Part shown: piece after piece, positions 10,347 through 55,153 of the stretch
How positions within the stretch are numbered: position 1 is the stretch's first letter
Layout of the letters: every line of letters starts with the position of its first letter
IMG/VR virus record: IMGVR_UViG_3300001687_001193
DNA length: 62,023 nucleotides
Reading direction: 5' to 3' (one strand)
Origin: a virus
Notes under the pieces: generated by a model
Database searches by the model: none
The model's input: the letters and a program-made list of their open reading frames with translations, nothing else
What the model was told of the DNA's origin: nothing
Made by a program: the position numbers and the translations under genes

Positions 10347-10564
10347 ACAACATATTCTTCAAAATAGGTGACATCGTGATACATAACACTCCGTTTTCTA
10401 CAAAATATGATCCAGGAGATGGCGTAGAAGGGGTTGTTATAGCTATGGTGTGGGGTGACATGCCTAAAGTTCGATGGAGCGACGGGAATGTAGAAACGTA
10501 TTGCCAGAGTGATTTAGAACTTATAGAAAGAAAGAGAGGCGACAGTGGCGAGGAAGAAAAGTAA
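10343..10564 (+). CDS. hypothetical small protein (KIGDIV-type N-terminus)
   Basis: N-terminal KIGDIVIH resembles the N-termini of the paralog set at 20940, 30076, 52328 and 58465. Confidence 0.35.
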   Translation: MNNIFFKIGDIVIHNTPFSTKYDPGDGVEGVVIAMVWGDMPKVRWSDGNVETYCQSDLELIERKRGDSGEEEK

Positions 10565-11564
10565 AAAGCCCGATTATTATGGACTGTTAGAGGTCTCACC
10601 TAGAGCCAGTAAAGAGGTAATAAAAGCCGCTTTTAAGGCCCTGATGGGCAAGTACCATCCAGACCACCACAAGACCGATAGAGTTGCTAAATCATTAAAC
10701 GAAGCGTATAGAGTCCTAATGAACAGCAAATCCCGTGCCGAATATGATGAGGAACGCGAGAATATAGAAGGGAAAATAATAGGCGACTATAGAGTACTCG
10801 AACTGATTGCGGAAGGCGGCTTTGGGAAAACCTATATTGGCGAGCAAATGTTAGTAGGAGAAAAGGTGTGTATTAAACATGCCTTGAGTGTTTCACCTCA
10901 AGACGAGGAAATATTGCTAGAAGAAACAAAGGCGGTGTGGGATCTAAGACATTACGCCATCCCAGCTATGAGGAATATCATTAAACTAGACGACGGAAGC
11001 TTAGCATTAATAATGAGCTATATACCTGGCCCGACATTGGAGCAGATGATAGAGCGAAACAAGAAGATCGATCCAGAGACTGTCTGTTGGATAACACAGC
11101 GAGTACTTAACGTCTTGATGTATTTACATTACCACGGTGTCATTCATGGAGATGTGAAGCCACAAAATATTATCATACAGCCCGAGTCACATATGGTAGT
11201 TCTCGTCGACTATGGCTTGTCTCTAATTAGACCTAAAAAGGACTCAAGTAGCAAAGGGTATACCCCATTCTTTGCGCCTCCAGAGCAGATTAAAGGATTT
11301 ACGCTGTTGCCGGGCTCCGATCTGTATTCTTTAGGTATGACGATGATTTACGCCCTGGGCGGCGATATTCAGAAAAAAGAGGTTCCATCGACGGTGCCTG
11401 CCCCAGTCTGTTCCTTCATAAAGAAGTTAATAGCATATAACGTTTTGAATAGACCCGATTGGGAGAAAGAGAATCTACTGGAAACGATACAAGAAGTCAG
11501 AATAGAAGCATTTGGTAGGGATTGTTCTTTTGGAAAAGGCATCCCTGGATTCACGAAAAAGTAA
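10545..11564 (+). CDS. J-domain (DnaJ-like) fused to a Ser/Thr protein-kinase-like domain
   Basis: GTG start after AGAGAGG. N-terminal YYGLLEV...KYHPDHH carries the HPD J-domain motif. Kinase motifs follow: AEGGFGKTY (Gly loop), VCIKH (VAIK), HGDVKPQNI (catalytic loop, HGD in place of HRD) and DYG (DFG). Confidence 0.65.
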   Translation: MARKKSKKPDYYGLLEVSPRASKEVIKAAFKALMGKYHPDHHKTDRVAKSLNEAYRVLMNSKSRAEYDEERENIEGKIIGDYRVLELIAEGGFGKTYIGEQMLVGEKVCIKHALSVSPQDEEILLEETKAVWDLRHYAIPAMRNIIKLDDGSLALIMSYIPGPTLEQMIERNKKIDPETVCWITQRVLNVLMYLHYHGVIHGDVKPQNIIIQPESHMVVLVDYGLSLIRPKKDSSSKGYTPFFAPPEQIKGFTLLPGSDLYSLGMTMIYALGGDIQKKEVPSTVPAPVCSFIKKLIAYNVLNRPDWEKENLLETIQEVRIEAFGRDCSFGKGIPGFTKK

Positions 11565-13936: not shown

Positions 13937-14059
13937 AGAACGGGACGCTGCCAACAATTTCCATTTCAATCATGGACTCGGCAGAAGTAAACGTTTAGCC
14001 AAAGCTAGGGGTAGTGCCCTTAGGTGTATCTCGGAGCTGATAGAATATTTAGAGGAAGA

Positions 14060-14893
14060 ATGAAAGACTACGAAACAAAATTGAAAGAGAAACAAGATTA
14101 TGGGACAGGTGCTACCAGGGATGCTGCCAAAGGTAAAGGTCGTTTCGACCTTATCCCTGATCTTGCATTGGCGAGGCTGGCGGGAGTGTATGAAAGAGGG
14201 GCACTCAATCATGGCGCTAGAAATTGGGAGCAAGGCCTCCCCATTTCGAGGCTTATAGATAGTGCGACTAGACACCTAGTACAATACAAAATGAGTAAAT
14301 ATATGCCAGAATTGGACGATGAAGACCATTTGGCGCACTCTGCTTGGAATATACTTGCTATCATACATATGGAAGAAATGATAAAACGCGGTAGTCTACA
14401 AAAAGAGTTAGATGACTTGCCGCGTTATGAAAGGCTGCAACAAAAGAAAGAGTGTGTCGAACTAAACAGTCAAGATATAATTAAGATAGAAAACGAACTG
14501 GGTCCACTTAGCGTCGATATCCATACAGATCAAAGAACCGTAAAGATACATCATCCTGCATCCGGCCACAGCGTTACTAAGTTTCGAAGCCCCGATCAAA
14601 GACACAACTACTCTTGTGCTTTAAAAGAATTGAAAGACATCTTGGACCACACAGAAGAGACCCGGCGAGAGGAAAAGAAAAAAAAGATAGAGGAATACTT
14701 TGAAGAAAATGCGCCCGTGAAGCCGACTGACTTCGACTTTGGTTTTGGCGACGAAGAAGAGGAAAAATTTGTGCCACATGAAAAAGCAGCTAGATCTGTA
14801 TCGTTAGATCGCGTGGCCAAACGTGGAAGTAAACATGTATGTAAAGGCGGACGTGGGTGTGGTCGCCATGCAGAGAAATTAAGTAAAAAATAA
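14060..14893 (+). CDS. dATP/dGTP pyrophosphohydrolase-like N-terminal domain protein (putative) with Lys/Glu-rich C-terminus
   Basis: AGAGGAAG RBS; GRFDLIPDLALARLAGVYERGALNHGARNWEQG resembles the phage dATP/dGTP diphosphohydrolase N-domain signature (recalled from memory, not a searched match). Confidence 0.35.
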   Translation: MKDYETKLKEKQDYGTGATRDAAKGKGRFDLIPDLALARLAGVYERGALNHGARNWEQGLPISRLIDSATRHLVQYKMSKYMPELDDEDHLAHSAWNILAIIHMEEMIKRGSLQKELDDLPRYERLQQKKECVELNSQDIIKIENELGPLSVDIHTDQRTVKIHHPASGHSVTKFRSPDQRHNYSCALKELKDILDHTEETRREEKKKKIEEYFEENAPVKPTDFDFGFGDEEEEKFVPHEKAARSVSLDRVAKRGSKHVCKGGRGCGRHAEKLSKK

Positions 14894-15195: not shown

Positions 15196-16926
15196 ATGTC
15201 TAAGTTAAATATGAATAAAACCAAAACAATAGACGAGTCCGTGAGGAGTCGTATAGATGCCACGATTAATAAAGCTGGCGGATTAGCGTTTGAATTCGAG
15301 GATCCAGCAGAGTACTTGTTGGCGACCGTAGGGTCTGCTATGTTCGTAGAGCCACGATATTATGCAGACGAAGTTGACCTTGAGTCACTAAAAAAGGGCG
15401 AGTTTAATCATAAGGACTTGGACGAACAAGCTATAAAAATCATAGACGCGTGTATTTTGGTGGCCGAAGGTGAAAACCCAAGGGATCTGTTGGCTTTGGC
15501 GCATTGGGCTCGTACAGAGTTGCATATGCGCACAACCCCGCAAATTATGTTGGCGGTGGCTGCCAAGCATGTGAATACCAAGCCTTTTGTGCGAAAATAC
15601 GTACCACTAATTGCCCAACGTGCGGACGAAGTAAAACAAATTGTCGGAGCATACGAACATTTGTTCGGATGGAAGAAATTCCCTGCTTCTCTGAAGAAAG
15701 GGATTGCTGATCGCATGTCTACGATGAGCGAATACGAGTTGCTGAAATACAACACTAAGGGACACCCTTCTTTCGCCGATATACTGCGGTTTTGTGATCG
15801 CAGGCACAACTACCCGCTTTCAAAGCCGCTCAGAGAATATATTCTGAGGGGAGAAGTTATAGATCCAGAAGCCACTCCAATAATTGCTGCACGAAAGAGA
15901 CTTACGTCTTTGAGCGAATGGAACGATGATGTCCCATTTCTAGCTAAACAAGCTGGGGCGACATGGGAAGTTTTGGTATCTCAGTTTGGTAGCAAACAAG
16001 AAGTATGGGAAGCAGTGATTCCTTTGATGGGGTATATGGCTTTGCTGAGAAATATCGCCAACTTTTTGGACGCCGATATTTCTATGGAGAAAGTGCGTTT
16101 TGTAGTCGATAGGATCTCGGATCCAGAAAACGTCGCGAAATCAAAGCAACTACCGTTCAGATTTATGTCTGCTTACCGTATGCTCCATCCAGACCCAATG
16201 ACTTTCTATAGAACGCGCGATAGAAGGAATGTGGCTCGAAACAGAGATGCATGGAATAGGGCGAAGCTTCAAGCTTTTACAGAGGGCATAGAAGCTGCTA
16301 TGGATGCATCTATAGTGAATGTCCCGGTTCTTCCAGGTGTAACTGTTGTGGCAGCGGATAATTCAGGTAGCATGCAGGCACCCATCTCTGAGAAATCTGT
16401 TATGACTGTACGTGATGCCGCTAACGCACTGTGTGCTATAGTACATAAGCGCTGCGAAGAATCCTATGTATGTTCATTCGGCGATAATGCAATCTGGCCG
16501 CCTTTGACTAAACGCAATTCTGTATTGACAAATATGGAGAAAATTGCCACTCATGAAGCCAGACTTCGCGGACATTCCACTAATGCGTGGAAGGTTATAG
16601 AATATATGATAGATCATAATATAATTGCTGATAGAGTGATTGTATTATCTGATATGCAATGTTATGATTCTACTGGTTGGCGAGGCGGCGGCAATAGTGC
16701 TGCTGCACTTTTGGTAAAATATCGTAGAAACATCAAGAATGATTGTTACGCACATTTTTTCGATCTCCAAGGCTACGGCACAGCTCAGTCTAAGACTGAA
16801 TATGACAATATAGTTGGTGGCTTTAGTGAGAAAATTCTCAGCCAAATTCTGGTATTCGAGAATGCTGAGTCATCGGCCGGCGACAAGCCGCTTCCAACTA
16901 TGGAATATATTAGGGAAAACTTCTAA
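15196..16926 (+). CDS. Ro60-like RNA-binding protein (TROVE domain + C-terminal vWA)
   Basis: GAGAGAGGTG RBS. MALLRNIANF parallels the Ro60 TALLRNLGKM segment, and QLPFRFMSAYRML parallels Ro60 RIHPFHILVALETY. C-terminal VVAADNSGSM matches the Ro60 vWA MIDAS; length 576 aa. Confidence 0.6.
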   Translation: MSKLNMNKTKTIDESVRSRIDATINKAGGLAFEFEDPAEYLLATVGSAMFVEPRYYADEVDLESLKKGEFNHKDLDEQAIKIIDACILVAEGENPRDLLALAHWARTELHMRTTPQIMLAVAAKHVNTKPFVRKYVPLIAQRADEVKQIVGAYEHLFGWKKFPASLKKGIADRMSTMSEYELLKYNTKGHPSFADILRFCDRRHNYPLSKPLREYILRGEVIDPEATPIIAARKRLTSLSEWNDDVPFLAKQAGATWEVLVSQFGSKQEVWEAVIPLMGYMALLRNIANFLDADISMEKVRFVVDRISDPENVAKSKQLPFRFMSAYRMLHPDPMTFYRTRDRRNVARNRDAWNRAKLQAFTEGIEAAMDASIVNVPVLPGVTVVAADNSGSMQAPISEKSVMTVRDAANALCAIVHKRCEESYVCSFGDNAIWPPLTKRNSVLTNMEKIATHEARLRGHSTNAWKVIEYMIDHNIIADRVIVLSDMQCYDSTGWRGGGNSAAALLVKYRRNIKNDCYAHFFDLQGYGTAQSKTEYDNIVGGFSEKILSQILVFENAESSAGDKPLPTMEYIRENF

Positions 16927-16929
16927 GAT

Positions 16930-17043
16930 ATGACACGGCTGGGGTTATAAAGATCAGAACTACTCCAGCATGGCAGCTTGAAGAATGATCTGGACGAGGC
17001 TTGGCATATAGCACTCACCTTATCCCAGCCGTGTCATTTTTTT
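16930..17043 (+). ncRNA. candidate structured ncRNA (Y-RNA-like) immediately 3' of the Ro60-like gene
   Basis: A 14-bp terminal stem, ATGACACGGCTGGG (16930-16943) paired with CCCAGCCGTGTCAT (17024-17037), encloses internal hairpins and is followed by T7. It starts 4 nt after the Ro60-like stop. Confidence 0.35.
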
Positions 17044-17287: not shown

Positions 17288-17320
17288 GCCGCCTTGGGGA
17301 ACCCCAACGGCGGCTTTTTT
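17288..17320 (+). terminator. rho-independent terminator
   Basis: GCCGCCTTGGGGAACCCCAACGGCGGC stem-loop followed by TTTTTT. Confidence 0.55.
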
Positions 17321-17344
17321 ATTGCTGTTAAGAAAGAAGAAACA

Positions 17345-17990: not shown

Positions 17991-18041
17991 GTCTAAACGA
18001 AAACAGGAAGACGAACCCGGCAAATACGATTGCCTCCTTCA

Positions 18042-18125
18042 TCTAATGGTATGATACCGGACTTTTAATCCGGCGTCCCGTAAGGGCATTGGGGGTTCGA
18101 TTCCCTCAGGGGGCACTGGGAGATT
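18042..18125 (+). tRNA. tRNA-Lys(TTT)-like with a 17-nt variable region and 3-bp D stem (class-II-like architecture)
   Basis: Acceptor GCCTCCT/AGGGGGC (1 GU), anticodon stem CCGGA/TCCGG, loop CTTTTAA, variable CGTCCCGTAAGGGCATT, T-arm GGGGG-TTCGATT-CCCTC, A73; hand-folded. Confidence 0.45.
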
Positions 18126-20231: not shown

Positions 20232-20309
20232 GGGCCATTAGCTCAGCCTGGAAGTAGCGCTACGGTGACATCGTAGGTCTTGTCGCTGGTTCAAATCCAG
20301 CATGGCCCA
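20232..20309 (+). tRNA. tRNA-Val(GAC) (probable; 8-nt variable loop)
   Basis: Acceptor GGGCCAT/ATGGCCC, anticodon stem CTACG/CGTAG, loop GTGACAT, T-arm GCTGG-TTCAAAT-CCAGC. Confidence 0.5.
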
Positions 20310-20601
20310 CACGAGGTGGAAAATGACAGACAAAACCAGAAAAATAGTGGACATAGATGACCTTAAAAGGATGACTTACAAGAATTACGAACCGTTTTTC
20401 ATCGTCCTCCCAACTGAGAGGGTTATAGTTAGTTCAAAAGAAATCCGCTGGTCTGGAAGAAAATATTTCTACGTTACACACCTCGTAGACGGCTCTAAGG
20501 AAAAACTTACTATTGAAGAGCTGAAAGAATCATATATTGGTAAAGCTATAAAGGCTGGGTGTCTATATTGGGAAGACACAGATCCAAGTTGTTTTATATA
20601 A
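20302..20601 (+). CDS. hypothetical protein
   Basis: 99-aa ORF; GAGGTGG RBS. Confidence 0.4.
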   Translation: MAHTRWKMTDKTRKIVDIDDLKRMTYKNYEPFFIVLPTERVIVSSKEIRWSGRKYFYVTHLVDGSKEKLTIEELKESYIGKAIKAGCLYWEDTDPSCFI

Positions 20602-25621: not shown

Positions 25622-26392
25622 ATGAGGGTATGGATTCTTGGAACTGGTGATGCCTTTTCCGAACAACGGTATAATGCGTCTTTTATAGTGCAAAGCAAAC
25701 ATGATAATCGTTTCCATGATCCTTCAGATGGATTTTTCAACTTGGCCGTAGAATGTCCACATCCCTACAGGAAAATACTTTTAGATTGCGAGATGAAAAG
25801 AGGCATTGCTAACGGCCCGAAACTAGAAGATATAGACCATTTCCTCATTAGTCATCTTCACGGAGATCATATGAATGGTCTAGAAGATGTGATTTTTTAT
25901 AAGCGGTTCGTGCAGGGTGTATATCCTCACGTTTACATGTCTCGTTGGGACTTGGATCAATTATGGAAGCATAGATTGAAATGTGCTATGGGCACCACTT
26001 ATGATGGCCAATGGCATCTCGATGTAGGGGAAGATTTTTTATATTATAAACATAGCTTGTCAGGTCCACAGTGCCATATAGGACCATTCGTTGTAGAAAC
26101 CAGAGTAACGCAGCATCATATCCCTGCAATTGCTATGTTGATTAAAGAAGGGGATAAATCTGTCGCTTTTTCATCTGATACTGTGTTCGACCCCTCTTTA
26201 ATTGATTGGATGAATCAAGCAGATCTTATTATACATGAAGCAACCGGTGGTCTTGGTCATACACGCTATGAAAGCTTAGTAACTTTATCGAAGAAAATTA
26301 AGGATAAGATGGTATTGATTCATTACCCTGACAGTTTTAATCGTGATACAGAGATCAGGAAGTTAAGAGAAGGCGAAGTACTTGAAGTATAA
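25622..26392 (+). CDS. metallo-beta-lactamase-fold hydrolase, RNase Z (tRNA 3'-processing) -like
   Basis: N-terminal ILGTGDAF, a LLDCE block, and ISHLHGDHMNGL (HxHxDH) match the short-form RNase Z / ElaC pattern. Confidence 0.5.
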   Translation: MRVWILGTGDAFSEQRYNASFIVQSKHDNRFHDPSDGFFNLAVECPHPYRKILLDCEMKRGIANGPKLEDIDHFLISHLHGDHMNGLEDVIFYKRFVQGVYPHVYMSRWDLDQLWKHRLKCAMGTTYDGQWHLDVGEDFLYYKHSLSGPQCHIGPFVVETRVTQHHIPAIAMLIKEGDKSVAFSSDTVFDPSLIDWMNQADLIIHEATGGLGHTRYESLVTLSKKIKDKMVLIHYPDSFNRDTEIRKLREGEVLEV

Positions 26393-28217: not shown

Positions 28218-28356
28218 AAGAGTTGCGCGACGGAGATTTTGCCGATGATTGGAAAAATCCAGCAACTATAAAGAGAAGACTAAATAAAGAAATTAAAGAG
28301 TTGGAAAACTCTTGATATAGAGCTTGTTCAATTTTAAGAACAGGATGGAGGATACG

Positions 28357-29559
28357 ATGGCTGAGAAATTCGTAAGAGACAAGCCCCATGTCAATGTGGG
28401 GACGATTGGTCATATTGACCATGGAAAAACTACCCTGACAGCTGCCATCACGAAAGTTTTGGCACTGGAAGGTGGTGCCAAGTTTACATCGTTTGACGAG
28501 ATCGACAAGGCACCAGAAGAGAAAGAGCGTGGCATTACGATTGCTACGGCACATGTTGAGTATACGACAGAGAAAAGGCACTACGCACATGTTGACTGCC
28601 CAGGACACGCCGACTATATTAAGAATATGATTACAGGAGCGGCCCAGATGGACGGAGCAATTCTGGTTGTAAGTGCTCCAGATGGTCCAATGCCGCAGAC
28701 AAGAGAACACATCCTGTTGGCAAGACAGGTAGATGTACCAGCAATGGTAGTTTTCCTCAATAAAGTAGATATGGTAGACGAGGAAGACGTAGAGTTGATA
28801 GATTTGGTGGAATTAGAATTACAGGAGCTACTTACCAAGTATCAGTTTCCTGGGGAAGAAATTCCGATTATACGCGGATCTGCTTTACAGGCATTGGAAT
28901 CTAATAGCGACGACCTTGGTGCCCCTGAGTATCAGTGCATTAGGGAATTGGTGCGGGCGGTTGACGATTATATCCCAGAGCCAGAGCGAGATACAGACAA
29001 GGATTTTCTCCTTCCTGTCGAGAACGTATATACCATCGGTGGTAGAGGGACGGTCGTTACCGGAAAGGTAGAGCGTGGCAAGATCAAGGTGAACGATCCT
29101 GTAGAAATAGTGGGGATTAGAGAAACCAATCGCACTGTATGTACCGGTGTACAAATGTTCTATAAGGATATGGATGAAGGAATAGCGGGCGATAGTATCG
29201 GTGCTCTGCTGCGTGGAGTAAAAAGAGACGAGGTAGAGAGAGGAATGGTGTTGGCCGCTCCGGGCTCTATAACGCCTCATAGGAAATTTAAGGCAGAAGT
29301 TTACGTCTTGAGGAAAGAAGAAGGCGGGAGACACACTCCGTTCTTCAGCGGTTACAGGCCACAGTTCTATTGCAGGACCACTGATGTGATGGGTGAGATC
29401 AAACTCGACGAAGGCATCGAGATGGTAATGCCAGGCGACAATGTTAATGTCAACGTAGAACTGCACGTACCTATAGCCGCAGAAAAAGGATTGCATTTTG
29501 CGGTGAGAGAAGGAGGTAAAACCGTAGGTGCAGGAATGGTAACGGAGATTATCGAATGA
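28357..29559 (+). CDS. tuf: translation elongation factor Tu (EF-Tu) homolog
   Basis: GGAGGA RBS 4 nt before ATG at 28357. [32 protein letters not shown] is near-identical to bacterial EF-Tu, including the G1-G4 GTPase motifs (DCPGH, NKVD) and the C-terminal beta-barrel domains. Confidence 0.9.
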
Positions 29560-29640: not shown

Positions 29641-29725
29641 GGGCGATTAGCTCAGCTGGAAGAGCGCCAGTCTTACAAACTGGAGGCCGAATAGGTACAC
29701 GCAGGTTCAAATCCTGCATCGCCCA
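29641..29725 (+). tRNA. tRNA-Val(TAC)-like with a 17-nt variable-region insertion
   Basis: The body matches bacterial tRNA-Val(UAC): GGGCGATTAGCTCAGCTGGAAGAGCGCCAGTCTTACAAACTGG, then 17 nt AGGCCGAATAGGTACAC, then T-arm GCAGG-TTCAAAT-CCTGC and acceptor. Confidence 0.5.
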
Positions 29726-29890
29726 CAGACTCCCGGCCAGGAGTTTAGACGACTGCTAGGAATATTTATTACTAACTCTTACAATCTGGTAGATGCCCCT
29801 CCCAAGGGACAGGTGCGAACGGCAGAATTGATCACCTGCTTATGAGCACGAAGTCAGATCGGTTGTCGTTTTTATGGCTGGGCAGATTAT

Positions 29891-42429: not shown

Positions 42430-45201
42430 ATGTTGGACAAGATACGCAAAGCCATAGAAAATAGGCTCAATAAGAAATATATCTCCAACCCAACATCTGA
42501 AGAAAACCTTTGGTCTTACATTGAAAAGACAGAGCGCGAGCTAGAAATCGCCGAAGGCGAACTTAGGGCTCTTAGAGAAAAAATAAAAGCGTTAGCCGAT
42601 CGAACTGGATTCCGTGGCATATTTCTAGAGTTTGTGGGGCCTCGCAGAGCGTTGGTGGCAATAGGTCCGCTTAAGGAAGAAGTGCTTATCACCCCGAATG
42701 TAGAAGAATCGCGGCTAAAAAAGGGCTGCGAAGTCTTAATTACCCTCGACGATAATGGTAAAATGTTGTCTGAGGATCGTGGACGCAGCGCATATGGCGG
42801 CAGAGTAGGCAAAATACATATGGTGTTAGACTCGGAACGAGTATTGATCGAGGAAGCTGGTCATATCGCTATGTTTATTCTAGCCGAAGGAGTGGAATGT
42901 CAAACTGGCGACGAGGTACGATACGATCCAATTTCTCAAGTAGTATTCGAAGTGATTGGAGAAAAGAGAGAATCGGCCTTCGCTTTGGCGGAACAACCTA
43001 AAACTACTTTCGACGATGTAAAAGGCTTGTGCGAAGAAAAAGAGTTTCTCAAAGAAAAGATAATATATCCTATAATTTACAGCGATAAGTTTGAAAAATA
43101 TGGGATTAAGCCCGCGAGAGGGATCTTGTTTCATGGTCCTCCTGGTTGTGGTAAAGCCCAACCCCTAGATAGTTTGGTGTTGACTCCCAACGGTTATGTA
43201 AAAATGGGAGACATTTTGCCTGGAAGTTTTGTCTCTACTCCAGACGGCAATAGTGCCAAAGTTCTGGAAACGTTTCCTCAAGGTGAAATAGAAATTTATA
43301 AAGTAAATTTTAGCGATGGAACATCAGCGGAGTGTTGTGAAAATCATTTATGGAAAATACGAAATAAATATGACATCGCAATGAAGCGACACGGCAGAGT
43401 AGTAAAACTTAAAGATATTATGTATAAGGTAAAACTTCCTTCAGGACGCAGGAAATATTCCATTCCGATGACAAAGCCGGTTAAATTTGTTAGACACAGC
43501 GTTCCACTTGATCCATATTTACTCGGGTGTTTACTTGGTGACGGTTCTTTTAGTAGCAAAAAGGTGGGTTTTACTACAATGGATCGTGAGATTATTGACA
43601 CTCTAACTCCGATTATACGTCGCCTGGGTTGTAAATTTACGAGACATGATAGATATAATTACGATATCGTAGAAATATTAAAACAGAGCGGCCCTGTTGG
43701 CCGCGCAGTAGAATCTATCACTGATAGCGGTGAAGTTATTACTTACGATTGTATCTCGTCTGCGGTGGCAGCTGGGTTTAGTAAACACGGAATATATAAA
43801 ACTTGTTCTGGGCGACAGCACACGCATGGGGGCAGAAGGTGGAGATTTTTACAGAAATTGGCTGCAGCACACCACCCAATAAAAAATGCGTTGCACCAAC
43901 TTTGCCTGTTTGGGACAAGATCTTCCGAGAAATTTGTGCCTCACGTCTATAAGATTAACTCTAGACAAATTAGACTTTCTCTATTAAGAGGATTAATGGA
44001 TACGGATGGGTGTGTCGACAAAAAGGGCATGACTGTATTTTTCTCCAGTACATCATATCAGTTAATAATGGATGTTAAATTTCTCGTGGAATCACTTGGT
44101 GGGAAAGCTAAAGTGGGTCGCCCACGCAAATCTAAGTATCGAAAGAACACTGGCGAAGTCGTAGAAACCGGCAATGTATCCCATAATCTTTTCATTTCCA
44201 TGCCACCCGACATAAACCCATTTCTGGTATCCCGAAAAAGGCTGCGCGTATGCCCCAAAACCAAGTATCCACCGACGAGATATATAGAAGAAATATGTTA
44301 TGTGGGCAAAAAGAAAGCGCAGTGCATATTAATAGACCATCCAGATCATTTATATATAACAAATGATTTCATTGTTACACATAACACATATCTAGGAGAA
44401 GCGGTATTCAACGAGTCCATGAAAATCAGGGGTGGAAAAACTGCCGGCAAGGGTTTTTTCCTGGTGAATGGACCAGAAATATTATCAAAATGGGCCGGCA
44501 ACACTGAACTAGCCATAAGAGAGGTGTTCGAGGCGGCACGACGAGAAGCTAATACCTCCGGATTTCCATCGGTTATATTCTGGGACGAAGTAGACAGCGT
44601 GGCTGGGAGGAGAAAAGATGTTGATACATTTACTCCAGAAAAGACTGTTGTTCCCACATTGTTGTCCGAAATACACGGAATTAACAACACGAACAATGTT
44701 ATTTTTATCGGAGCGACCAATATGCCTAATTTAATTGACCCAGCCTTAATGCGCCCTGGGAGACTTGGAGACGCGATTATAGAAATCCCGAGGCCCGAAA
44801 GTAATGCCGCAATGGACATTTTAGATAAGGAGTTCAACCGTGAGAGTCTCCCAGCAGCCCTTACAGCTCTTTTAAAAGAAGGCCTGACTCAACGGATAGT
44901 TGACCATTGTTATGCGAACACCAAACCTCTTGCATATGCGAGCAGGAAAAGTGGTGCTAAGCAACCACTAATGAGACAGGAATTGGTGAGCGGTGCACTA
45001 TTCGCCCAGATTGGGGAGGATTTGGTGCGTAGAGCCTGCATGGCAGAGATAGATGAATCTAGGCCACCCACAATTGAAGATGCTATAGACATGGTAGATA
45101 ACATATTATTGACACAGATTGGAGTGTTGGATGCTGGCGTGAAAAGTGGTTTTACTATCGATACTTCTGACTACGTTGTCGATGTATCATTAGATGGGTA
45201 A
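42430..45201 (+). CDS. AAA+ ATPase of the proteasome-activating (PAN/ARC/Rpt/Cdc48-like) type, interrupted by an intein in the Walker A motif
   Basis: N-terminal coiled coil. Walker A GPPGCGK|...|T is split by the insert, then Walker B VIFWDEVD and the SRH ATNMPNLIDPALMRPGRLGDAIIEIPRP follow. The extein is about 513 aa. Confidence 0.75.
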   Translation: MLDKIRKAIENRLNKKYISNPTSEENLWSYIEKTERELEIAEGELRALREKIKALADRTGFRGIFLEFVGPRRALVAIGPLKEEVLITPNVEESRLKKGCEVLITLDDNGKMLSEDRGRSAYGGRVGKIHMVLDSERVLIEEAGHIAMFILAEGVECQTGDEVRYDPISQVVFEVIGEKRESAFALAEQPKTTFDDVKGLCEEKEFLKEKIIYPIIYSDKFEKYGIKPARGILFHGPPGCGKAQPLDSLVLTPNGYVKMGDILPGSFVSTPDGNSAKVLETFPQGEIEIYKVNFSDGTSAECCENHLWKIRNKYDIAMKRHGRVVKLKDIMYKVKLPSGRRKYSIPMTKPVKFVRHSVPLDPYLLGCLLGDGSFSSKKVGFTTMDREIIDTLTPIIRRLGCKFTRHDRYNYDIVEILKQSGPVGRAVESITDSGEVITYDCISSAVAAGFSKHGIYKTCSGRQHTHGGRRWRFLQKLAAAHHPIKNALHQLCLFGTRSSEKFVPHVYKINSRQIRLSLLRGLMDTDGCVDKKGMTVFFSSTSYQLIMDVKFLVESLGGKAKVGRPRKSKYRKNTGEVVETGNVSHNLFISMPPDINPFLVSRKRLRVCPKTKYPPTRYIEEICYVGKKKAQCILIDHPDHLYITNDFIVTHNTYLGEAVFNESMKIRGGKTAGKGFFLVNGPEILSKWAGNTELAIREVFEAARREANTSGFPSVIFWDEVDSVAGRRKDVDTFTPEKTVVPTLLSEIHGINNTNNVIFIGATNMPNLIDPALMRPGRLGDAIIEIPRPESNAAMDILDKEFNRESLPAALTALLKEGLTQRIVDHCYANTKPLAYASRKSGAKQPLMRQELVSGALFAQIGEDLVRRACMAEIDESRPPTIEDAIDMVDNILLTQIGVLDAGVKSGFTIDTSDYVVDVSLDG
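43156..44385 (+). other. intein (410 aa) with LAGLIDADG homing-endonuclease domain, inserted between K242 and T653 of the P-loop
   Basis: Begins AQPLDSLVLTPNGYVKMGDI (block-A-like), contains LLGCLLGDGSF and LLRGLMDTDGCV (two LAGLIDADG motifs), ends IVTHN followed by Thr +1. Joining the exteins restores GPPGCGKT. Confidence 0.7.
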
Positions 45202-54847: not shown

Positions 54848-55092
54848 ACCTAAAAGAATTGAAATATGTAATAGATTCTGCGCTAGACAAATGTCCAGGA
54901 GCAGCACAATGGGATATTATTGTATCACGAGATGGAACTATGAGGGAAGAACTCTTTGAGGTAGATGGAGTAGAAAGCTGTGTATATGAACCAGATCCTA
55001 CTTTAATAGGCAATTATTTTAGGGTAAGAATTGCAGAAAGCGAAGAAAAAGAAAACGCGCTGTGTTTTTATGTTTTGCCAAGCTCCCGCTAG
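54844..55092 (+). CDS. hypothetical protein
   Basis: 82-aa ORF; ATGA overlap. Confidence 0.35.
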   Translation: MNLKELKYVIDSALDKCPGAAQWDIIVSRDGTMREELFEVDGVESCVYEPDPTLIGNYFRVRIAESEEKENALCFYVLPSSR

Positions 55093-55153
55093 TGGATTTC
55101 TAGACTCGGGACTCCTAATCCTGATGTTCCCGGTTCGATTCCGGGCGGGAGTT
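55082..55153 (+). tRNA. tRNA-Arg(CCT) (probable)
   Basis: Acceptor GCTCCCG/CGGGAGT (1 GU), anticodon stem CGGGA/TCCTG (1 GU), loop CTCCTAA, T-arm CCCGG-TTCGATT-CCGGG. Confidence 0.45.

Follow-up and report, generated by a model that had tools for sequence, protein, structure and literature searches.

Expanded variable arms on lysine, valine and tryptophan-type tRNA genes of a large bacteriophage

Three tRNA genes with expanded variable regions

In cells, the division of tRNAs into class I, with a short variable (V) region, and class II, with a long arm and restricted in bacteria to serine, leucine and tyrosine tRNAs, is held nearly without exception, and the long arm is an identity element. 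Here we describe three genes that depart from this rule in the IMG/VR virus record IMGVR_UViG_3300001687_001193, a 62,023-nucleotide stretch of phage DNA that was analyzed at full length and is referred to below as the window. The genes carry the anticodons of tRNA-Lys(UUU), tRNA-Val(UAC) and, in an atypical tRNA-like gene, tRNA-Trp(CCA), each combined with a V region of exactly 17 nt as parsed from the ARAGORN structures (Table 1). All other class-I anticodon tRNAs of the window have V regions of 8 nt or less. An initial annotation, made by hand-folding, had proposed such expanded V regions on class-I tRNAs and they proved real: ARAGORN and RNAfold recovered them in all three genes, Infernal did so in the Lys and Val genes, and neither ARAGORN nor Infernal returned an ordinary fold with a 4-5-nt V loop. 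The position first given for the Lys gene, 18042-18125, was 10 nt off; the gene listed in Table 1 is the only one with a UUU anticodon in the window.

Both the Lys and the Val gene matched the Rfam family RF00005 over model positions 1-71 and above its gathering score of 29 bits, with a 13-14-nt insertion placed by Infernal exactly in the V region. As read from the sequences, both keep U8, A14, G18G19, U33, U54-U55-C56 of the T loop and A58, and the Levitt pair is preserved as A15-U48 in Lys and G15-C48 in Val. The D arm of the Lys gene is of class-I type, with 7 nt in its loop and U13 and U22 mismatched; the anticodon loop (CUUUUAA) is canonical and CCA is not encoded. The Val gene, which starts 82 nt downstream of a phage EF-Tu gene, has a canonical Val-type D arm whose nearest neighbor in a D-arm comparison was class-I Val, and is a class-I Val scaffold with an insertion. 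Its description as an almost nucleotide-for-nucleotide match to bacterial tRNA-Val was overstated, since identity to E. coli tRNA-Val is 79.6% over the first 49 nt and the alignment ends at the insertion. The acceptor/T-stem geometry given by ARAGORN is 7/5 in all three genes.

RNAfold produced a cloverleaf with an extra mini-hairpin in each case. In the Lys V region the hairpin is CCC-GUAA-GGG with a GNRA loop, or an alternative 4-bp GUCC/GGGC stem, and in the Val V region it is weak, consisting of G-U, C-G and C-G pairs around GAAUA. Counting G-U, the V regions of the three genes form 3-5 pairs, and they share with class II a stem-loop in a V region of more than 10 nt. A short V stem had been expected from the hand-folding; pairs do form in each gene, but singly they do not exceed shuffled sequences and pairing is significant only at the population level. 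The suggestion that the genes carry small inserts was borne out, with approximately 12 extra nucleotides in the V region relative to the class-I consensus and, for the Lys gene, to its syntenic orthologues in related phages, which have 5-6-nt V loops and lack the insertion (loci L279, L280, L281 and L122; L numbers are our handles for the loci compared). Comparison with the tRNAs of related phages had been put forward as a check, and it thus supported the expansion.

The Trp-like gene is less regular. It has a G1-U72 pair, a 6-bp anticodon stem, a normal T loop (UUCAAUU), and A8 in place of U8 as the single nucleotide between acceptor and D stems. The window has no other Trp tRNA. The gene sits in a clean intergenic gap of approximately 100 nt, which is followed by a ribosome-binding site (RBS, GGAGA) and an ATG at 2182; the open reading frame (ORF) call that overlaps it is therefore probably over-extended.

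Table 1. Positions of the long-V tRNA genes and of other features in the window.
Feature	Coordinates	Strand	Evidence and remarks
tRNA-Lys(UUU)	18032..18116	+	85 nt as called; ARAGORN; RF00005 56.4 bits; A73 at 18115
V region of tRNA-Lys(UUU), CGUCCCGUAAGGGCAUU	18074..18090	+	structure parse, Infernal, RNAfold
tRNA-Val(UAC)	29641..29726	+	86 nt as called; ARAGORN; RF00005 68.0 bits; A73 at 29725
V region of tRNA-Val(UAC), AGGCCGAAUAGGUACAC	29684..29700	+	structure parse, Infernal, RNAfold
Atypical tRNA-Trp(CCA)-like gene	2084..2167	+	ARAGORN; G73 at 2166
V region of Trp-like gene, GUGCUGCAAAGCGUCGA	2125..2141	+	ARAGORN: 4-bp stem UGCU/AGCG, GCAA (GNRA) loop
ORF call overlapping the Trp-like gene	2017-2436		139 aa; probably over-extended
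EF-Tu, full-length	28345-29559	+	all three Pfam domains; closest solved structures are bacterial EF-Tu (E = 4e-192)
RNA candidate, ~108 nt	16930-17037	+	minimum free energy -45 kcal/mol; z = -5.6 vs shuffles
Intrinsic terminator of second structured stretch	near 17288-17322
tRNA with insertion in anticodon loop	5295-5431	+	RF00005 54.5 bits; A73
tRNA with loop CUGUCAC (Asp GUC)	8108-8182	+	Rfam only, missed by ARAGORN; 51.9 bits
Marginal tRNA-like element, loop CUCCUAA (would be Arg CCU)	55083-55152	+	Rfam only; 30.0 bits; poor D arm
tRNA-Val(GAC)	20232-20310	+	79 nt; 8-nt V loop, 10-nt D loop, mismatched D stem
AAA ATPase	42430-45201	+	923 aa; interrupted by LAGLIDADG homing-endonuclease domain
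DnaJ-domain/Ser-Thr protein kinase fusion	10545-11564	+
dATP/dGTP diphosphohydrolase (MazZ-like) N-terminal domain protein	14024-14893	+	fused to Ro60 in one homologue (P0015)
Metallo-beta-lactamase-fold protein	25622-26392	+	resembles anti-Pycsar Apyc1 or RNase Z; 39 bits, cut-off 50

A widespread, mostly virus-borne class of long-V class-I tRNAs

We determined the distribution of such genes with a pattern in which a Lys(UUU) anticodon arm is followed 19-27 nt later by a T arm, a spacing that a normal tRNA cannot match. The pattern was found at 120 or more IMG/VR loci, and among the matches listed almost all were true long-V tRNA-Lys(UUU). In a cellular set of 596 Gb, with a single genome per species from 185,579 species of bacteria and archaea, the pattern matched 118 times; 45 of these were true long-V tRNAs, most of them in dense, phage-like tRNA arrays on metagenome-assembled contigs. 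Two Nitrosopolaris matches are probably archaeal intron-containing genes. Isotypes and discriminators (N73) were counted on 2,140 unique tRNAs from related loci, including the flanks of viral matches. Long and short V regions were distributed among them as 16/62 for Asn, 12/50 for Trp, 8/45 for Cys, 13/105 for Thr, 11/94 for Ile, 7/62 for His, 7/108 for Gly, 1/86 for Val and 0/76 for Asp, the sole long-V Val being the gene of the window itself. When loci were picked regardless of V length, by EF-Tu and Ro60 homologues, 7 of 309 tRNAs were long-V class I (Asn, Lys, Gly, Ile). Overall, the three genes belong to a discrete, widespread and mostly virus-borne class of class-I tRNAs with a V arm, in which Val and Trp are rare forms.

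Members of this class occur in cultured phages. The tRNA-Asn of phiKZ (AF399011, our L286; 269557-269645) is 87 nt long with V region UGGCGAAAGCCCACC and G73; the Caulobacter phages CcrColossus and CcrPW carry an 89-nt long-V tRNA-Asn, Rhodobacter phage RcXuper an 88-nt long-V tRNA-Lys(UUU) with U73, the minority state for Lys, and Xanthomonas phages XacN1 and X1 a long-V tRNA-Lys. Long-V class-I tRNAs are also found in Ruegeria phages. These jumbo-phage genes resemble those of the window in their 14-17-nt V regions with a 3-5-bp stem and a GAAA, GCAA or GGAA loop, and in the cognate discriminator, G73, of two tRNA-Asn; the CcrColossus tRNA-Asn is 84.6% identical to the Lys gene of the window over positions 25-76, arm included. 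They differ in being mostly Asn and Lys and, for the most part, in encoding CCA and in having D arms like those of Tyr or Ser tRNAs, and the Val(UAC) and Trp versions of the window have no counterpart among them. In public annotations they appear as plain tRNAs without comment. A literature search for V-arm-bearing class-I tRNAs in phages found no paper, with most subscription journals outside its coverage, and as far as could be found the class has been neither described nor explained although it is visible in these annotations, including that of phiKZ.

Seven Actinomycetota loci (L175, L178, L179, L187, L189, L216, L219), from metagenome-assembled genomes (MAGs) of Frankiales, Mycobacteriales, Actinomycetales and Nanopelagicales, each hold one long-V tRNA-Lys(UUU), with V regions such as CGCGGAAACGCCAUC, and at most one other tRNA in 4-8 kb. 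Their stems show compensatory changes. At L175, the Actinomycetota locus checked for neighbors, the surroundings are chromosomal (PPK2, molybdopterin oxidoreductase).

Across these loci the V length of class-I tRNAs is bimodal, the main mode of 3-5 nt being separated by a trough at 10-11 nt from a second one of 12-18 nt. The tRNA-Val(GAC) of the window (Table 1) is of an intermediate V size that is rare in this distribution. At least 3 Watson-Crick pairs were found in 92% of long-V Lys and 75% of other long-V class-I tRNAs compared with approximately 40% of shuffles (38% for Lys shuffles), and at least 4 pairs in 44% and 34%, respectively, compared with 8-9%. Stems are mostly 3-4 bp and thus shorter than those of the phages' own Ser, Leu and Tyr tRNAs, which reach 8 bp in the same loci with approximately 30% at 5 bp or more. 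Most loops are tetraloops; GNRA loops cap 46% of long-V Lys arms, and GAAA alone accounts for 52 of 167. Within backbone families the stems change in a compensatory manner (GGAA/UUCC, GGGA/UCCC and GGAC/GUCC; GGCA/UGCC, GGC/GCC and GAGAA/UUCUC). Two or more distinct long-V class-I tRNAs are present in 71 loci, and a permutation test over these gave no within-genome constraint on length (P = 0.56), so that the equal 17-nt arms of the window do not reflect a genome-level ruler.

The origins of long-V tRNAs appear mixed from their D arms. Among 168 long-V Lys genes the nearest D-arm neighbor was Ser in 44, Tyr in 15 and short-V Lys in 15, and a single origin from tRNA-Tyr or tRNA-Ser scaffolds was rejected because neighbors are mixed and some are class I. 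In phiKZ tRNA-Asn, the D arm CCCGAGUGGCAGCAGGG and the anticodon loop CUGUUAA both resemble those of bacterial tRNA-Tyr (CCCGAGCGGCCAAAGGG and CUGUAAA). This likeness suggests a tRNA-Tyr ancestor for some of the long-V Asn and Lys genes, followed by a switch of anticodon and discriminator, with only mixed support from the D-arm neighbors.

Two further groups stand apart from this pattern. A tRNA-Ile(UAU) family with 21-25-nt V regions is present in L021, L035, L066, L079, L096 and, in a close relative of the window phage, at L280 14293-14386. Its stem covaries, and its 7-nt loop CAGAUUA is conserved (CAGAUAA in L280), which suggests a specific recognition element. The reverse anomaly was also seen, as 80 of 347 unique tRNAs with Ser, Leu or Tyr anticodons have a short V region. 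These are mainly Leu, with few Tyr GUA or Ser GCU/UGA cases; they are 74-77-nt genes of huge phages with 4-6-nt V regions and often lie beside normal long-arm copies (L127 703-934 and 7311-7384, L142 5696-5770, L146 2089-2163 and many of L001-L120).

Comparison with close relatives of the window phage showed that the arm turns over quickly. Phages with Ro60 proteins 86, 78, 67 and 58% identical keep the same order of Ro60, tRNA-Lys(CUU) and tRNA-Lys(UUU), and the Lys(UUU) genes of these four relatives keep the acceptor stem GCCUCC.../...GGGGGC together with their short V loops. In its body, comprising positions 8-45 and the T loop, the Lys gene of the window is instead almost identical to a long-V Lys(UUU) in L212, an unrelated, phage-like array of 13 tRNAs. 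The window gene thus looks chimeric, or like a replaced allele, and not like a long-standing trait of the lineage. Similarly, the closest EF-Tu relatives (87, 84 and 83% identity) have only a tRNA-Ala(GGC) after EF-Tu and no Val(UAC). Searches with Ro60 and EF-Tu in IMG/VR, in JGI metagenomes and in a set of 5.8 billion proteins gave relatives whose protein identity reached 86-87%; none of these carried the arm on Lys(UUU), and none had a Val(UAC) gene following EF-Tu. The relatives carry arms on other isotypes instead: an 88-nt His(GUG) in L282, the 94-nt Ile(UAU) in L280, and in L122 an 89-nt long-V Asn(GUU) beside a normal Asn copy. The isotype that bears the arm therefore changes fast, and arms are gained, lost or swapped rapidly among close relatives. 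A link to the neighboring HNH or LAGLIDADG genes was rejected, since relatives with a normal-V Lys(UUU) have the same HNH gene.

The amino-acid identity of the three tRNAs could be assessed from their discriminators and from codon use. Lys and Val tRNAs ordinarily have A73, and G73 is a determinant for tryptophanyl-tRNA synthetase (TrpRS). Leu and Tyr identity needs A73, Ser tRNAs usually have G73, and U73 and C73 fit none of these. The initial annotation had given A73 for all three genes; Lys and Val do have it, the Trp-like gene instead has G73, and all three carry the normal cognate discriminator. Throughout the long-V class, N73 follows the isotype of the anticodon: it is G in Asn (16/16), U in Cys (8/8), U in Gly (7/7), C in His (7/7), G in 11 of 12 Trp, and A in all but one of 21 Ile, Met and Pro, with 124 A and 39 U among Lys. 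Codon use was read by aligning the phage EF-Tu to solved bacterial EF-Tu and Ro60 to two phage orthologues. In EF-Tu, 8 of the 12 AAA sites align with Lys and 15 of the 20 GUA sites with Val, and no site of either codon aligns with Leu, Ser or Tyr; in Ro60, UGG falls on Trp at 15 of 17 sites. None of the three codons was found at Ser or Tyr positions, and Leu appeared in 5 of 68 Ro60 alignment cells. In 34 long ORFs, AAA accounts for 59% of the codons for Lys and GUA is used more than any other Val codon; UGG is the sole Trp codon.

With anticodons UUU, UAC and CCA, the three genes are not class II tRNAs of Ser, Leu or Tyr type. Nor do they show the identity set expected of a substrate of seryl-tRNA synthetase (SerRS), as Lys and Val have A73 instead of G73, and their acceptor stems (GCCUCCU, GGGCGAU) and D arms are unlike those of the phage's three Ser tRNAs. 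The three tRNAs are probably charged by lysyl- and valyl-tRNA synthetase (LysRS, ValRS) and TrpRS, and used by EF-Tu and the ribosome. The codon-residue data would also accommodate low-level dual charging.

The surrounding tRNA island

The window phage has a genome of approximately 460 kb, since proteins 100% identical to its Ro60 and EF-Tu are encoded on a 460,921-bp contig. No close relative of the window was present among 50,697 deposited phage genomes. All coding in the 62-kb window is on the plus strand, and the window is a tRNA island with 24 tRNA genes called by ARAGORN and three more Rfam matches (5295-5430 and the two Rfam-only elements of Table 1). Accessory genes between the tRNAs include GMP reductase/IMPDH and HNH and LAGLIDADG endonucleases. 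The EF-Tu is approximately 80% identical to its closest cellular homologues, from MAGs named Deltaproteobacteria, Bipolaricaulota and other Proteobacteria, and is kept at 83-87% identity in related phage contigs.

A Ro60/TROVE gene lies 1.1 kb upstream of the Lys gene, with its stop at 16926. Directly after this stop is a structured RNA candidate whose ends pair in a 16-bp stem followed by a U run, an architecture and position expected of a Y RNA if the predicted fold is right; no match to Y-RNA or any other Rfam family was found near the Ro60 gene, including this candidate. A second structured stretch ends in an intrinsic terminator (Table 1). The tRNA at 5295-5431 contains a 61-64-nt insertion in its anticodon loop, in which a stem CUCGGGAU/AUCUCGGG encloses a D-arm-like hairpin, GGUCU-AAUUGGAAA-GAC, and a T-arm-like hairpin, GAUUUAGG-UUCGAGC-CCUAAUC. 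By its predicted fold, the insertion is a tRNA-elbow-like module nested in a tRNA, and its length falls short of that of a group I intron. Without the insertion the loop might become UUGAAGA, that of a Phe(GAA) tRNA, an isotype otherwise missing from the window. Near a Ro60 gene, such a putative module recalls the tRNA-like domain of bacterial YrlA Y RNAs. A search for relatives of this element with the intron mode of ARAGORN returned mostly adjacent tRNAs fused together.

Among the protein-coding genes, the AAA ATPase probably contains an intein, judging from the endonuclease domain that interrupts it. The DnaJ/kinase fusion, the MazZ-like protein and the metallo-beta-lactamase-fold protein (Table 1) are all kept in the relatives L280 and L281 or L282.

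Possible functions of the arm

The reading that we favor, tentatively, is that the three genes encode cognate elongator tRNAs of the phage, each with an approximately 12-nt V hairpin that acts as a miniature class-II-like arm and is kept because it alters how enzymes handle the tRNA. The tRNAs would keep their cognate identity through anticodon and discriminator and read AAA, GUA and UGG. The arm would alter the shape of the face formed by the anticodon stem, D stem and V region, such that host tRNA-directed defence nucleases, or other host enzymes, would treat the phage copy differently from the host copy, and phage translation would continue after cleavage of the host's Lys, Val or Trp tRNAs. 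Long arms are already tolerated by EF-Tu and the ribosome on Ser, Leu and Tyr tRNAs, and tRNA-Lys(UUU) is a classic target of antiviral tRNases. The three genes share the structural mark of counter-defence tRNAs in that they are phage isoacceptors unlike those of the host, with a V arm nearly absent from cellular tRNA-Lys(UUU). Known nucleases provide analogies. Retron-Eco7 PtuAB cuts host tRNA-Tyr inside the V loop, and the longer V loop of phage SP15 tRNA-Tyr is needed to neutralise it (PMC12673091); tRNA-Lys(UUU) is cut in its anticodon arm (nt 30/31) by a Schlafen nuclease of bacterial origin that also hits tRNA-Val(UAC) (PMC13056530); and phage tRNAs escape anticodon nucleases via sequence changes (PMC10264068). 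A hairpin beside the top of the anticodon stem could block such nucleases, and by this analogy arm-bearing tRNAs may be poor substrates for PrrC, PARIS, Schlafen or PtuAB-type nucleases while still being accepted by synthetases, EF-Tu and the ribosome. That the arm has been kept through a counter-defence or discrimination effect is possible, if somewhat doubtful. The broader idea, that a small, often GNRA-capped V arm on class-I tRNAs, above all Lys(UUU) and Asn, is a general and recurrent phage counter-defence whose isotype switching would record an arms race, seems rather unlikely.

Several observations weigh against an arm kept for enzyme handling. Pairing in the single V regions was no better than in shuffled sequences (P = 0.49, 0.56 and 0.09), the Val and Lys hairpins being weak. 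A pattern scan of IMG/VR found no other long-V Val(UAC) with a canonical Val D arm; its four matches were all normal-V tRNAs matched via the acceptor end, and the Val case of the window may therefore be a one-off accident. The Trp-like gene does not reach the RF00005 gathering score, and its best match in the Rfam clan, tRNA-Sec (RF01852), gave 34.2 bits against a gathering score of 47. It is not a tRNA-Sec either, given this score, its CCA rather than UCA anticodon and its 7/5 fold in place of a 13-bp domain. The frequent short-V Leu, Tyr and Ser tRNAs fit general structural laxity equally well, and the apparently chromosomal Actinomycetota family of long-V Lys(UUU) rules out a strictly viral trait. 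Finally, nucleases such as PrrC that read only the anticodon stem-loop need not sense a V arm, and the anticodon loop of the Lys gene is canonical.

Much of this would be expected if the insertions are neutral or nearly so, that is, if phage tRNA genes, loosely constrained and frequently recombining, tolerate added nucleotides in the V region alone and only as compact hairpins, and the tRNAs function normally with a useless arm. The absence of the arm from the syntenic Lys(UUU) of all close relatives, with different isotypes affected in each, agrees with such neutrality, as do the isolated Val case, the common short-V Leu, Tyr and Ser tRNAs, the lack of a within-genome length constraint and the weak individual hairpins. 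Against it stand V lengths that are bimodal instead of forming a decaying tail, compensatory stem changes with enriched stable GNRA caps, persistence across extensive families, with cultured jumbo phages and one clade of bacteria among the carriers, and a strong enrichment in viral over cellular genomes. Survival of hairpin-forming insertions only could, in turn, yield bimodal lengths, compensatory stems and GNRA caps without any benefit. On balance we consider neutrality, the main rival, an unlikely explanation, though one with real weight. Decay of at least one gene into a pseudogene or a non-decoding tRNA-like RNA is considerably less probable. It was raised in the initial annotation for all three genes and concerns above all the Trp-like gene, which lacks U8, has a single linker nucleotide, scores below Rfam thresholds and is overlapped by an ORF call. 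For this gene it is possible, but the gene is the only Trp tRNA of the window, keeps the CCA anticodon, U33, G73 and a canonical T loop, and occupies a clean gap before an RBS and start codon, and long-V Trp tRNAs of other phages also have G73, several with a 6-bp anticodon stem. For Lys and Val, high covariance-model scores (56 and 68 bits) and an intact core make decay unlikely.

The initial annotation had also proposed that a long arm together with A73 could draw SerRS or the leucyl- and tyrosyl-tRNA synthetases (LeuRS, TyrRS), leading to partial mistranslation of AAA, GUA and UGG or to uncharged decoys. The 17-nt V regions are indeed sized like the phage's own Ser and Leu arms (14-17 nt), A73 is common to Leu and Tyr, and outside the window roughly one in three long-V Lys genes has a D arm resembling that of Ser or Tyr tRNAs. 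There is also a precedent in the nev-tRNAs of nematodes, eukaryotic tRNAs which are reported to combine a long V arm and tRNA-Leu-type class-II scaffold with a foreign, non-Ser/Leu/Tyr anticodon, to be charged with Leu and to provide an alternative code for leucine (PMC3333845). The window genes differ from these in being phage-borne, and their discriminators and scaffolds point to cognate charging. The isotype-tracking N73, which includes U73 and C73 as well as the G73 of the Trp-like gene, does not favor mischarging, nor do the class-I D arms of Lys and Val, the class-I nearest neighbor of the latter, and the absence in both of the G1-G2 acceptor start and G73 common to the phage's three Ser tRNAs. 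With 3-4 bp, the stems are only as long as the shortest class-II stems of these loci, and conserved phage proteins such as EF-Tu and Ro60 use the codons in the standard way and need Lys, Val and Trp at them. Because these tRNAs serve the phage's most demanded codons, mischarging would mostly harm the phage itself. We therefore regard it as highly improbable, and decoy or processed-variant readings of the three genes found no positive support. Hardly more credible is an arm that marks phage tRNAs as self for a phage partner, be it a modification enzyme, a processing nuclease, EF-Tu or Ro60, or a nuclease that spares them. The window does encode EF-Tu directly upstream of Val, Ro60 upstream of Lys and a metallo-beta-lactamase-fold protein, GNRA tetraloops are well known for docking with proteins and RNA, and 71 loci have two or more distinct long-V class-I tRNAs. 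However, the arms vary in sequence and length, both within the window trio and in the class as a whole; in relatives that share the EF-Tu and Ro60 genes, Lys(UUU) is of normal V length and Val(UAC) is missing; EF-Tu touches the acceptor and T arms and not the V region; and a co-occurring protein family was not identified.

Compared with known systems, the genes of the window share with bacterial class II tRNAs a V region of more than 10 nt with a stem-loop between positions 44/45 and 48. They differ in their Lys, Val and Trp anticodons with matching discriminators, in the class-I D arms of Lys and Val, and in stems of 3-4 bp against up to 8 bp for class II in the same loci. Non-canonical V-arm-containing tRNAs of eukaryotes were reportedly treated by Hamashima et al. 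in 2016. Allo-tRNAs and (8/4) tRNA-Ser/His are likewise irregular tRNAs from metagenomes and phage tRNA clusters, but have 8/4 or 9/3 geometry and Ser-type identity (G73/U73) (PMC5389517), in contrast to the 7/5 geometry and cognate discriminators found here. A functional parallel is provided by phage isoacceptors structurally unlike the host tRNA, such as the tRNA-Tyr of T5 and SP15 acting against Retron-Eco7 PtuAB (PMC12673091, PMC11555353) and anticodon-loop variants (PMC10264068). In SP15 an existing class-II arm was lengthened and the effect is experimentally proven, whereas in the window an arm was created on class-I tRNAs and its protective effect is a putative one.

In summary, phages break the class I/II rule routinely and in both directions, apparently without a change in amino-acid identity, and the long-V class gives a directly testable link to tRNA-targeting immunity. 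If the arm does protect from such immunity, it would be a simple and portable resistance module, would help explain why large phages carry tRNAs, and would lend itself to the design of nuclease-resistant or orthogonal tRNAs. If it is neutral, it would show that LysRS, ValRS, TrpRS and asparaginyl-tRNA synthetase (AsnRS) tolerate extra structure, and would serve as a warning for annotation that 85-90-nt genes that look like class II can be Lys, Asn, Trp and other class-I tRNAs.

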